Assembly: GCA_913020725.1 (NCBI GenBank)
Contig: CAJWCD010000069.1
Location: forward strand, 1 to 19,223
Direction: 5' to 3'
DNA: 19,223 nucleotides
Origin: an uncultured Pseudomonadota bacterium
Lineage (GTDB): Bacteria > SAR324 > NAC60-12
Part shown: positions 14,065 through 19,223 of the stretch, one piece after another
How positions within the stretch are numbered: position 1 is the first letter of the stretch
How the letters are laid out: every line of letters begins with the position of its first letter
Program-made: the position numbers and the translations under genes
The notes under the pieces: generated by a model
Databases searched by the model: none
What the model was told of the DNA's origin: nothing
The model's input: only the letters and a program-made list of their open reading frames with translations

Positions 14065-14388
14065 ATGCAGCAACAAACGAGACAACCCACCCATCCGGGA
14101 ACAATCCTCAAGGAGGATTACCTCCTCCCGCTTTCCCTGACGCTGACAGAGTTGTCGGGACGACTCAACGTTTCCCGCAAAACGCTCTCCAAGATCGTCA
14201 ACCGGAAAGGCTCGGTGACTCCGGAAATGGCCCTACGTCTAGCCCGTGTTTTCGACACGACCCCTCAGCTTTGGATGAATTTGCAGGGCAAGTATGACTT
14301 GTGGCAGGCTGAGTATGGCTCAGAGGCTTGGCAGGTGGTAGAACGGCTTCCTGCTCGAATTCTGCACTCGGACGTGGTTGGAGCATGA
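14065..14388 (+). CDS. higA: HigA antitoxin (Xre HTH)
   Basis: PTHPGTILKEDYL...LNVSRKTLSKIVN...TPEMALRLARVF.TTPQLWMNLQ..YDLW. Confidence 0.92.
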   Translation: MQQQTRQPTHPGTILKEDYLLPLSLTLTELSGRLNVSRKTLSKIVNRKGSVTPEMALRLARVFDTTPQLWMNLQGKYDLWQAEYGSEAWQVVERLPARILHSDVVGA

Positions 14389-15123: not shown

Positions 15124-15232
15124 CCTCTTTTCACGTTAGGGGTTGCTTTACGAGCAAGATGTCGCTAGGTTTTCCTGAAGAACACTAGCTGAGAAAAGTT
15201 CGAGTGCGAAATCTTCGCTTGACGGCGACTCG

Positions 15233-16102
15233 TCAGGAATCCGTGAACGACCGCAGGATGCGCTGAAGTTGGGCGGCGTCCTTGGCGACGGTGCAACTCT
15301 GGCGGTTGGAGGCGAGTTGGCAGAGGGTGTGGTAGAGCGGATCGCTCTTGCTGATGCCAAAGCCGATGGTGCGGATCAGCACCTGCGGGTGCTTGCGCTT
15401 GGCGGCAAGGACGTGAGGGAGTTTGATCGGCGAGAGGTCATCGTCCTGCCCATCGGCCAACACCACCACGAGCTTGCGGCGTTTTGCCCCCTTGGGCACT
15501 TGGTAGGCCGAACTGCGGAAGGAGCGGATGGCTTGGTGCAGGGCTTCGTAGAGATTGGTGCCGCCGCGGGTGTCGAGTTGGTCAATGACCTTGCTGAGGT
15601 GTCGGCGCACGGCAGAGCCGGAGGGGCCGATGGGTTCAAAGATCACCGTTGCTGAACGTGGTTTCAGAGCGGGTGAGTTCGGCTGCTGCTGGATGCGGGC
15701 GTTGAAAGTCCAGAACTGGATGCGGGTGCCCTCGCGCATGTGCTTGGCGAAATAGCGCAGCGCTTTTTTTGCGGAAGCAAGCTTGCTGAGACGCTCTCCC
15801 GGCGCGGGTGCGTCCATCGAACCGGAGGTGTCCATCACAAACAACACATCCGAAATCGAACGCTTGGGCTGCACCACAGGTTTGGGTTTTGGCTTTGGTT
15901 TTGGTTGCGGCGGTGCAGGTTTTGGTTGGAGTTTGAGTTTCGGCTGGGGTTTGGGTTGTGGCACAATGACCGCTGCGGGTGCTTGCTTTTTCGGTGGACT
16001 GCCAAAGAAATTGAAACCCTGCGCGGACACGGGTGTTTCCAAGCCGAGGATTCCCAGCAGAAATCCCAGCAGCAAAAAAAGTAAGCTGATCCGGATGTGC
16101 AA
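15233..16102 (-). CDS. Secreted VWA-domain protein with a Pro/Lys/Gln-rich linker
   Basis: TTG start with GAGG 7 nt upstream, signal peptide ending in VSA, linker PQPKPQPKLKLQPKPAPPQPKPKPKPKP, and a complete MIDAS (DTSGS..GGTNL..LADG). Confidence 0.82.
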   Translation of the reverse strand: MHIRISLLFLLLGFLLGILGLETPVSAQGFNFFGSPPKKQAPAAVIVPQPKPQPKLKLQPKPAPPQPKPKPKPKPVVQPKRSISDVLFVMDTSGSMDAPAPGERLSKLASAKKALRYFAKHMREGTRIQFWTFNARIQQQPNSPALKPRSATVIFEPIGPSGSAVRRHLSKVIDQLDTRGGTNLYEALHQAIRSFRSSAYQVPKGAKRRKLVVVLADGQDDDLSPIKLPHVLAAKRKHPQVLIRTIGFGISKSDPLYHTLCQLASNRQSCTVAKDAAQLQRILRSFTDS

Positions 16103-17301: not shown

Positions 17302-17330
17302 TTGCGGTGTGATTTTGTTGTGGGTACGCT
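17302..17330 (+). promoter_or_regulatory. Putative leaderless promoter of the second brnT
   Basis: TTGCGG (17302-17307), 17-nt spacer, TACGCT (17325-17330); the ATG follows 5 nt later with no SD. Confidence 0.45.
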
Positions 17331-17335
17331 GGTCC

Positions 17336-17579
17336 ATGGAGTATGAATGGGACAAAAGCAAACCGCGCATCAACAAAACGAAGCATGGTGTGGATTTTTC
17401 CAGCATTGCTGACTTTGACTGGACAACAGCGTTTGTCATGGAGGATCAACGACGTGATTATGGGGAAATTCTGAATATTGCGTTGGGGTTCATCAGGTCA
17501 AGGTTGCATGCGCTGGTGTTCACAAAACGAAATGAGAAAATCCGTCCTCAAGGAATGGGTCATCCAGCACTCAGGCTGA
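17336..17579 (+). pseudogene. brnT: Deleted brnT-brnA remnant (toxin N-terminal part joined to an antitoxin C-terminal tail)
   Basis: MEYEWDKSKPRINKTKHGVDF...DYGE...LVFTKRNEKIR stops resembling BrnT before the expected IISxR motif. From 17544 another frame reads VLKEWVIQHSG*, resembling a BrnA C-terminus. Confidence 0.75.
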
Positions 17580-17634
17580 GGGATTCGTCTCGTTGAAAAA
17601 AGTTTCGTCAACCCCTTGCAGATAAGGCATCCCA

Positions 17635-17877
17635 ATGCTCTACAAGATACCCTTGAAACTCATCCCTCAGCCGGAAGGGGGCTACACGGTTGTCTCCCCG
17701 TTGTTGCCGGAACTCATCACCGAAGGAGACACCGCCGAGGAAGCCTTGGAACATGCGCAAGATGCCTTGGCAGCGGTGCTGGAGGCTTATGAGGACTTGG
17801 GACACCCACTCCCTCCGGAACTTCATCCCGCAAACACCCGCCGTCCTGTGGAGTTGGAAACCCTGCTGACGGCATGA
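17635..17877 (+). CDS. hicB: HicB-family antitoxin (short, no DNA-binding domain)
   Basis: 80 aa: PQPEGGYTVVSPLLPELITEGDTAEEALEHAQDAL...YEDLG.PLP. Confidence 0.88.
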   Translation: MLYKIPLKLIPQPEGGYTVVSPLLPELITEGDTAEEALEHAQDALAAVLEAYEDLGHPLPPELHPANTRRPVELETLLTA

Positions 17878-18085
17878 CGTACCGTGAGGTCGTCCAGCGT
17901 TTGAGACAACTAGGCTGCACCGAGTTGCCGCGTCGTGGCGGAGGCTCCCATCGAAAATGGTATAATCCCGCCACTGAAAGAGTGACCGTGATCCCGGACT
18001 GGGAGGAAGTGATTTGCGGAACGGAACTCTCCGGGCAGTGGTCAAGCAACTTGGGTTGTCGTGGCAGGAATTTCTGGATGCCTAA
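17874..18085 (+). pseudogene. hicA: HicA toxin, frameshifted
   Basis: MTYREVVQRLRQLGC..RRGGGSHRKW..VTVIPDW continues in the -1 frame from 18002 as GGSDLRNGTLRAVVKQLGLSWQEFLDA* (TAA 18083-18085). One G is missing at 18001-18003. Confidence 0.85.
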
Positions 18086-18161
18086 AAAAAATGTTGCATC
18101 CTTTGACAAAGGGAGTAAAATATGAACGTTGTGTTTTCCGTAGGGTCAGGTTAATTTTTTC

Positions 18162-18190
18162 TTGACCTTTTCTTGAAGAGTGCGGACAAT
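18162..18190 (+). promoter_or_regulatory. Candidate sigma70 promoter for the structured leader and surface protein gene
   Basis: TTGACC (18162-18167), 17-nt spacer, GACAAT (18185-18190), preceded by the AT-rich tract TTAATTTTTT. An alternative is TTGCAT-16-TAAAAT at 18094-18121. Confidence 0.45.
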
Positions 18191-18196
18191 ACAGAA

Positions 18197-18627
18197 CTTT
18201 GAGTGCCTTGCTCGGGGCAAGGTGCGTGGACGAAACCCCTTGGCGGCTCGGCCTGAGCGTTGGTCGTCACGGGGGTCTCGGCTGCAAATCGCGGACGAGC
18301 GAAACGGCAATAGCGGCCGCTTCGAGGGTTTTCGTCCATGCATGCACCATCTTTAGGCTCTCCGAAGGAGTGCTGGCCGCACAGGACCAGCGCGGGTTCC
18401 TTCATGTTTTTCCGGTGCGGGCTCGATCCCGCCCAATGCCGCATTTGCGGCACCGTGGTCCGGAATCTGCACGATTCCGGGAAATAGTCCGTCTTCGTGC
18501 TGGAAATAGTTTCCGGCGTTAGAAACGGACGTGGGCAGTTGCACCTGTGCCTGCATCTGTACCGATTGAGACCCGCACCTCTGGATCGTCCGGGGGCTAA
18601 GGTGTTTGTAATCTCTTAAGGAGTATT
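18197..18627 (+). ncRNA. Unassigned large structured RNA or 5' leader
   Basis: At least 10 mutually compatible helices read by eye, several with G-U pairs that work on the + strand. No convincing protein ORF and no recognised RNA family signature. Confidence 0.6.
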
Positions 18628-19047
18628 ATGCAAAAGCTCAGCAAATTGATGCTCGCTGCCGTTGCAGCGATCGCACTGGCGACTCCCGCAATGGCGTGGG
18701 ATTTCGGCGTGACCGGGACTGCAACTGCAGGCTGGAACATGGCTACGGAAAAGGACAACAGCACTGATACCACTACCGCTTCCTCCATGCGGGTGAGTAG
18801 TGCTGGATCGAGCCTGAAGATTGCGTCTGGCAATACGGATGGAGACAAGACCGTGTCTTTCTCCTACACCCTTGACTGGGACGGCAACCTTGACGAAACG
18901 GTTGCGGCGTCCGGATCCACGAAAGTTGGGGATTGGACCGCATCCGGTGGTGTTTCCTACAACATGGATCGCAGAGGTTGCTCTGGGGACAATGACGACC
19001 ACGGTCTTCATGTCCCAGGTTGTCACGACAGTTTTCGCTGGAAGTAG
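18628..19047 (+). CDS. Secreted/outer-surface beta-strand-rich protein (porin-like), possibly 3'-truncated
   Basis: Strong RBS AAGGAG (18618-18623) and signal peptide MQKLSKLMLAAVAAIALATPAMA. The mature part is rich in G/S/T/D with alternating strands (VSFSYTLDWD, WTASGGVSYN). Only 139 aa. Confidence 0.7.
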   Translation: MQKLSKLMLAAVAAIALATPAMAWDFGVTGTATAGWNMATEKDNSTDTTTASSMRVSSAGSSLKIASGNTDGDKTVSFSYTLDWDGNLDETVAASGSTKVGDWTASGGVSYNMDRRGCSGDNDDHGLHVPGCHDSFRWK

Positions 19048-19223
19048 TTCCCCGTCAGGCCCGGGGAGCAAACAATCATGTCTAATTCTGATGAATAAAA
19101 TTACAATTTCATGAATTTGTTTGTTGAACATTCTACCCCAAAAATAAACTATTACAAAAAAAACAACTTTTGTAACTTCCGGGTCCCAAAATGTGTTTTC
19201 AAGCAATAATTCCATAGGTGAAA

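Follow-up and report, generated by a model that had tools for sequence, protein, structure and literature searches.

A conserved, folded RNA leader precedes a porin gene in several genera of the deep-sea SAR324 clade. The structure is transcribed, conserved and linked in cis to this gene, and it extends over 430–480 nt. Its first large domain is likely a captured ISNCY mini-transposon, and the leader as a whole likely acts in cis by protecting the porin mRNA from RNase E and adjusting how much of it is present; we regard this combined reading of origin and role as about evenly balanced between right and wrong. The DNA analysed, hereafter the window, is the 19,223-nt contig CAJWCD010000069.1, to which all positions refer. 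An earlier inspection of its letters (the original prediction) had marked positions 18197–18627, upstream of a surface-protein gene, as a multi-domain structured RNA that might be either an undescribed cis-regulatory element or a large ncRNA. The first of these proposals is upheld by the lack of an Rfam match, by covariation, by linkage to the porin and by RNA contigs that span the start of the ORF. The second, a large independent ncRNA, is not favoured.

The folded structure is real, and the original observation is confirmed in part. The region 18197–18627 folds with an energy of −203.6 kcal/mol on the plus strand (z −5.97), and 0 of 100 shuffled sequences equal or beat this value, which bears out the expectation that it would fold better than shuffled controls. 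The minus strand reaches z −4.00. For the last 300 nt of the leader, z is −4.2; of 45 upstream regions of 300 nt without ORFs that were sampled in this genome, two are stronger and one is equal. Homologous leaders also fold strongly, with z between −2.7 and −9.2 in 10 of 10. The plus strand had been proposed from the fold itself, and the sense energy is indeed the lower one in 10 of 10 homologues, but the sense z-score is better in just 7 of 10. Consequently, the choice of strand rests on gene context and the promoter, not on folding. Two other upstream regions of this genome are strongly folded, namely G000:C42 at about 15150–15450 (minus strand, z −7.6) and G000:C58 at about 15466–15766 (minus strand, z −6.3); both (L220, L221) precede genes with signal-peptide-like starts and have no Rfam match.

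Every helix named in the original prediction can be found where it was placed, and most of them dominate the computed ensemble. These include the 5' hairpin at 18203–18225 (9 of 9 pairs, P 0.74), which overlaps the start of domain 1 and whose sequence is kept only in the window's genus, g1; the 18-bp stem of domain 1 (17 of 18 pairs, P 0.77); the long-range stem 18414–27/18565–79 (P 1.00); the TGCCGC helix (P 0.99); the CCGGAATC helix (P 1.00); and the GTCCGT helix (P 0.99) with its inner stem (P 0.91). A hairpin also occurs in 13 of 13 homologues at the place of the last one described, 18578–18596, with differing sequences. Three elements fared less well. The GCGGC/GCCGC extension of domain 1 is present but shares the ensemble almost evenly with an alternative pairing (0.48 vs 0.49). 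The small hairpin at 18360–70 (−2.4 kcal/mol) is displaced by a GAAGGA/TCCTTC helix at 18364–69/18398–403 (P 0.96), and the GCCCA/TGGGC pair, thought to close the junction, has an ensemble probability of 0.04. A scan of the window with the covariance models of Rfam 15 returned nothing at the gathering score; the strongest match to the leader at E ≤ 10, to sX6, lies on the minus strand and has 15 bits versus 40. No match was found within the leaders of nine homologue loci either, as expected of an undescribed RNA.

Domain 1 (18222–18343, plus strand) is closed by a long helix, the two arms of which are similar to the terminal inverted repeats of ISNCY elements and their MITEs. The helix has at least 18 bp and lengthens into longer rods in genera g2, g5 and g12. 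In an alignment of 12 related sequences, which stand for about five lineages, 94.1% of the cells of the closing helix and P2 are paired and 17 two-sided changes occur; these values are reached by 0 of 500 shuffles. The check for covariation proposed earlier is thus positive in the sense that the genera differ by two-sided changes that leave the domain-1 helix intact. The number of individually covarying pairs, six, is equalled by 156 of 500 shuffles and is therefore not above chance.

The probable ancestry of this domain was recognized through a weak outlier in the search with the domain-1 model, a 154-nt element with inverted ends in genome G079 (E 5.6e-4). Its end motif was found in 13 of the 88 genomes, with as many as 125 occurrences in one of them (0 for the reversed control), often as inverted pairs that lie 111–247 nt apart and have TA-rich 6-bp duplications. 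The same ends bound elements of 1.9 kb that encode an ISNCY transposase (NF033593, 521 bits vs a cut-off of 325) and are also present on a gammaproteobacterial plasmid. Several MITE subfamilies with unrelated interiors share them, together with a TA-rich target of 6 bp (111–247 nt, one 517 nt; loci L156–L216 in G082, G077, G083, G079, G081, G074 and G010). Both arms of domain 1 carry the end sequence GTGYYTGAACGRAAA(CCC). The 5' arms agree with real element ends at 17–21 of 22 nt (20 in the window, 21 in G006 and L033, compared with a real MITE end) and the 3' arms at 16–18 of 22, against a maximum of 16 among 20,000 random 24-mers. Finding the MITE family with the domain-1 model biases toward an arm match; the best match is to an element of G083, not to that of G079 through which the family was found. 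Furthermore, the conserved block begins where the repeat begins, the span of domain 1 (121–164 nt) lies inside the MITE range, and the window's own genome contains two ISNCY transposase remnants.

Other features set domain 1 apart from its mobile relatives. The window's arms are degenerate, so that the pair ranks fifth among the inverted pairs of the genome. No target-site duplication was detected, since the flanks differ in all 11 homologues that have both, and no dispersed copies exist in the window's own genome, which has one copy. The domain-1 model matches MITEs through their ends only. Its interior shows no likeness to the short MITEs sampled, a small part of several hundred copies (nhmmer, best E 1.1). 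Without target duplication and dispersal, the domain is not a member of the active ISNCY MITE family. Being single-copy, fixed, free of a target duplication and kept as an RNA helix, it is likely a domesticated MITE, and on these sequence comparisons we consider such ancestry probable. The original prediction had treated dispersed copies as the mark of a MITE and a MITE as a refutation of its proposal. Dispersed copies are absent from this genome, yet domain 1 is likely a descendant of an ISNCY-type MITE; the MITE idea accounts for where one domain came from, but not for what the leader does now.

The gene downstream is represented in the window by its 5' part (18628–19047, plus strand), homologous only up to about 18996 and unsupported beyond. 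The annotated 139-aa ORF is the start of a protein of 385–430 aa. An allele 88% identical over the common part folds as a beta-barrel (AF2, pLDDT 73.5, 19-row alignment; prediction from a single sequence, at pLDDT 32, was unusable), and its best Foldseek matches are general porins (PorB, E 3.7e-12). By sequence, Pfam yields a weak Porin_4 match in only one of six alleles, and no relative was found in the PDB. The window's ORF follows full alleles to residue 112–123 only. RNA contigs diverge from it with loose ends at 18965, 18984 and 18996, and positions 18997–19190 have essentially no cover. Consequently, the stop at 19047 probably stems from the assembly, and the ORF is a truncated, probably misassembled porin start; a C-terminal part was sought in the assembly and not found. 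The end of the contig (18997–19223) is AT-rich and unique in the assembly, probably a misjoin or a truncated allele.

The coding region varies strongly behind a nearly constant leader. Leaders that are 98% identical precede mature porins only 35–51% identical, and a profile search gave 434 clusters at 90% identity among the 8,000 candidates scored. Alleles are mosaic and hypervariable within species (18628–18996, L029–L071), and assemblies repeatedly break inside them. Two g1 leaders (L052, L071) precede an allele with a different signal peptide. In three loci (L051, L043, L057) a common 3' motif lies just past the porin stop despite very different g1 alleles, and it could serve as a downstream anchor for allele exchange. 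The porin of G066 (L138/L016, G066:C2 793225–793951) carries frameshifts and a stop behind an intact leader, which reflects either a sequencing error or a pseudogene. That selection on a phage receptor underlies the hypervariability is a guess.

BLAST detects the leader in 5 of 61 genomes. The covariance model of domain 1 has one match each in 12 of 88 genomes of the SAR324 phylum (E 4e-27 to 3e-14; 9 of the 12 supplied training sequences), all from the window's family, f1, and its genera g1, g2, g5 and g12. A porin start lies downstream in nine of them, and the contig breaks in the other three. Among 44 metagenome matches to the motif of hairpin H9 (18533–18563), 22 extend the motif, and each of these has a porin start 90–97 nt further on; metagenome contigs L033 and L038 represent a fifth lineage. 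The leader is single-copy in its own genome as in every other genome matched, and it was never seen away from the porin gene. Upstream of the leader, the neighbouring gene changes from genus to genus, so it is with the porin that the leader travels. Many genomes have neither leader nor porin, which is not evidence of absence since contigs break at this locus. A second pattern match in the window's own genome (C4) was rejected because it has no partner arm. Viral sequences gave 18 matches to the domain-1 pattern, none with a partner arm, no matches to the g12 motif and three to the H9 motif; a phage collection gave no match.

In genus g3 a distant porin is preceded by a different long leader (z −2.7), which has none of the domains of the window's leader. 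This conserved and structured stretch, about 510 nt before a porin-like gene (L145, L149, L150, L152), follows a TTGACC-17-GATACT promoter and also has a hairpin over the Shine-Dalgarno sequence. Neither covariance models nor nhmmer revealed homology between the window's leader and those of g3 or other distant porins. Long leaders in this group therefore need no MITE.

A sigma-70-like promoter, TTGACC-17-GACAAT (18162–18190, plus strand), precedes the leader with a predicted start near 18197, and a TTGAC hexamer lies about 65–73 nt before the domain-1 core in g1, g2, g5 and g12. A candidate for a second promoter of this type, TTGCAT-16-TAAAAT (18094–18121, plus strand; predicted start near 18128), scored below the threshold of the promoter scan and was recognized by reading the sequence; genus g2 has a similar TTGCAC-17-TA.. 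site at the same place. Between the two predicted starts an additional 8-bp hairpin begins (18143–18168, plus strand, P 0.99). In two studies, RNA contigs stop at 18145 and carry a loose end of 21 nt, which we take to be library adapter, and contig L037 (library type not given) begins at about 18143, the base of this hairpin. As a weak hint, the RNA may thus start at 18143–45, about 50 nt upstream of the boundary originally drawn. Hairpins are predicted at both candidate 5' ends.

Transcription is indicated by marine RNA data sets. Of 24 listed runs from 17 studies, 20 contain at least half of the sampled sequence words. Contigs cover the leader and the porin start in all four runs examined, and one contig (18070–18747) links the leader to the porin ORF. 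These data are contigs, which may contain DNA and cannot show starts, strand or level.

The remainder of the window includes toxin–antitoxin genes at 17309–18125, 1992–2468 and 14065–14388. The set comprises a BrnT-like gene, HicB followed by HicA, a fused BrnT/CopG frame and an HTH gene resembling HigA; compared with G002, hicA is frameshifted near 18009.

The leader may be understood as a protective module. In the proposed course of events, a MITE would have inserted between the promoter and the porin gene in the ancestor of the five lineages and then become immobile, its inverted repeats being retained for the long helix that they close near the 5' end. With this helix and the packed hairpins of the 3' part, RNase E would find little single-stranded RNA to attack, while cleavage of the helix by RNase III, as with Correia elements, would tune the half-life of the mRNA. 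The leader would thereby form a constant expression module, with the coding region swapped among very different alleles. RNases E, G and III are encoded in the genome, which is 93% complete; Hfq and RNase J were not found in it. With no Hfq found, control exerted by Hfq-dependent sRNAs in enterobacteria would have to act in cis.

Stabilizing leaders are known from the mRNAs of ompA and of S-layer genes. The ompA leader, with its paired 5' end and few open stretches, slows the entry of RNase E. The window's leader is likewise a structured 5' UTR, with predicted 5' pairing, on an envelope-protein mRNA in an organism with RNase E. It is about three times longer than the ompA leader of about 130 nt and differs further in having several domains, one of them transposon-like, and invariant bases in its junction. 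Protection alone leaves two properties unexplained, namely the two-state core of domain 1 and the invariant unpaired bases of the 3' part (M1, the H7 loop and H9).

The two-state core spans 18237–18328 (plus strand). A CCCCUUG-RCGRC segment pairs either locally with 18263–18275 or distally with 18316–18328, and the two pairings are mutually exclusive. Across 12 sequences, 68 of 72 cells support the local pairing and 65 of 72 the distal one, and both are kept in every homologue. In predicted ensembles the local form dominates in five, the distal form in six, and one is even; for the window the values are 0.49 and 0.48, respectively.

The 3' part, from H4 to H11, is a series of hairpins on the plus strand. 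Hairpin H4 (18364–18403, P 0.96–1.0), which contains the GAAGGA/TCCTTC helix, shows a compensatory change in L037 (GAGGGA/TCCCTC). The short U run after it (18407–18411) occurs in g1 only; an intrinsic terminator at this position was rejected on account of this restriction, the 3-nt gap and a terminator scan at chance level. The long-range stem around the 3' multiloop (18414–28/18564–79, P 0.99–1.0) is restricted to g1 and absent as a shared feature from alignment A5. Motif M1 (UGGYCC...UGCA) and hairpin H7 with its unpaired GCA loop occupy 18456–18481. Within this stretch, the bases T, G, G, C, A, T, G and C are invariant in 13 of 13 homologues, as is one C-G pair of H7, two further helix positions of which show four pair types; the C of the loop is unpaired in 12 of 13. 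Hairpin H8 (18487–18530, P 0.84–0.99) varies in sequence. The 31-nt block of H9, with the 8-nt loop CCUGUGCC (18544–18551), is near-invariant across three lineages and diverged in g5 and g12; the only substitutions observed in it are from G-C to G-U, plus one at a U.U mismatch (L058). Hairpin H10 (18578–18596) lies 5' of the ribosome site, and H11 (18608–18630) covers the Shine-Dalgarno sequence (18618–23) and the start codon. These 3' counts derive from per-sequence folds anchored on motifs, which is weaker evidence than a consensus fold; RNAalifold yields little here (−3.1 kcal/mol) because of variable insertions.

Two further ideas about this part were rejected, and a third was not supported. 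A Cys-rich upstream peptide, GSCTCACICT, read from H9 has no common start codon, its stops differ and its third positions are invariant. An upstream ORF from an AUG in the H10 loop is missing in the window, L037 and G006, and its frames vary elsewhere. For a kissing interaction between the H9 loop and GCACAGG in H4 or domain 1, 18–115 of 300 shuffles were as good, and the partner site depends on lineage.

The two-state core and the invariant unpaired bases would be accounted for by a riboswitch-like or protein-bound switch, in which domain 1 flips and a pocket of M1, H7 and H9 controls translation through the start-codon hairpin; the sensed partner could be a small molecule, an ion, the porin precursor or a regulator. 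As protection leaves both properties unexplained, this model is the main rival of the protective reading, though judged less likely than it. Besides the preservation of both pairings, it draws on the persistence of the junction and loop bases across leaders of 45–60% GC, albeit in few lineages, and on the start codon, whose A and U are predicted to be paired in 12 of 13 homologues and whose pairing exceeds the genome median in all 15 close homologues. However, opening the region from −14 to +12 costs 7.9 kcal/mol, compared with a median of 7.7 for 40 low-GC genes, and the removal of domain 1 clearly lowers the opening energy in just 2 of 11 homologues (G019 and G068). The anti-start arm has no conserved partner, H9 is not kept in g5 and g12, and the element stands before one gene only. 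Moreover, the two pairings use short G-runs and may represent junction slippage instead of switching. A broader proposal makes the domesticated ISNCY mini-transposon the two-state switching domain of a new class of large riboswitch-like leaders; such a leader would respond to a ligand or protein and gate the hypervariable major porin, itself a likely phage receptor, of an abundant deep-ocean clade in which Hfq seems to be missing. We judge this proposal, taken as a whole, rather unlikely.

Domain 1 could also act through its cleavage. In E. coli adhE, processing by RNase III is an activating step; here, the strand freed 3' of domain 1 would pair with the anti-start arm and unmask translation. 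The length of the helix, at least 18 bp with longer rods in g2, g5 and g12, speaks for this reading, as does the presence of the enzyme in the genome. Truncation lowers the opening energy by 2.7–3.4 kcal/mol in G019 and G068, but the other 9 of the 11 homologues, among them the window, show no such effect. Run X2 has a deep contig with its start at 18340, yet this depth step occurs in one of four runs, and contig depth cannot rank the parts of a transcript and is hence not evidence. Activation by RNase III is accordingly considered improbable.

An independent ncRNA that is transcribed, or processed out, before the porin gene and works in trans is very improbable. Its size, multi-domain fold and own conserved promoter would suit it, but the scan before the ORF found one terminator where 1.7 are expected by chance, the element never occurs apart from the porin, and an RNA contig crosses into the ORF. 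Familiar large RNAs are accounted for elsewhere, with 6S on contig C43 and RNase P on C6, and ARAGORN finds no tmRNA in the window. Conservation at the DNA level, with the invariant block as an anchor for recombinational allele exchange or as an operator and domain 1 as a neutral transposon scar, is hardly credible: the alleles are clearly mosaic, H9 is palindromic and in some g1 contigs leader segments of more than one type are combined near H8–H10, but the sequence from H9 to the signal peptide is genus-specific, so cassette transfer does not homogenize H9, whose changes are of the G-U type, and the two-sided changes that keep the domain-1 helix are not those of a scar.

The protective, cis-acting leader with a domesticated MITE has partial counterparts among described systems. 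In transcripts of Neisseria, mtrCDE among them, Correia repeats are cut by RNase III (PMC10969869). These repeats (NEMIS) are likewise MITEs co-transcribed upstream of a gene, with inverted repeats that form an RNA helix, but they are multi-copy and recent, whereas the leader has one copy, no target duplication and an ISNCY origin and is fixed across five lineages with compensatory changes. Mobile and BIME-derived attenuators (Naville and Gautheret 2010, PMC2965389) similarly represent mobile-element sequence exapted as a 5' regulator of a cellular gene. Those regulators are repeats or the 3' terminators of IS elements and precede unrelated genes; the leader, in contrast, uses paired element ends, serves one gene and has no conserved terminator. 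Domain 1 shares the end sequence of ISNCY (NF033593) elements and MITEs and a span within the MITE range, but differs in its degenerate arms, unrelated interior and lack of the 6-bp TA-rich duplication and of dispersal. No description of a SAR324 porin leader was found in the literature listings searched, although supplements of surveys may hold one; groups of putative sRNAs from Station ALOHA, cited in PMC13414033, could include this RNA. As far as searched, the leader is undescribed, outside Rfam and not an active MITE.

These results add a structured leader in an abundant, little-studied marine clade and name the helices and invariant bases for probing. They also provide a well-anchored candidate for a bacterial MITE that was exapted long ago as RNA structure. 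Relatives still carry the donor element in mobile form, while the domain-1 copy is fixed across genera with compensatory changes; the published bacterial cases seen are recent multi-copy repeats or IS terminators. Finally, the leader offers a conserved point of entry to a porin locus in which assemblies break and whose product is annotated as hypothetical.
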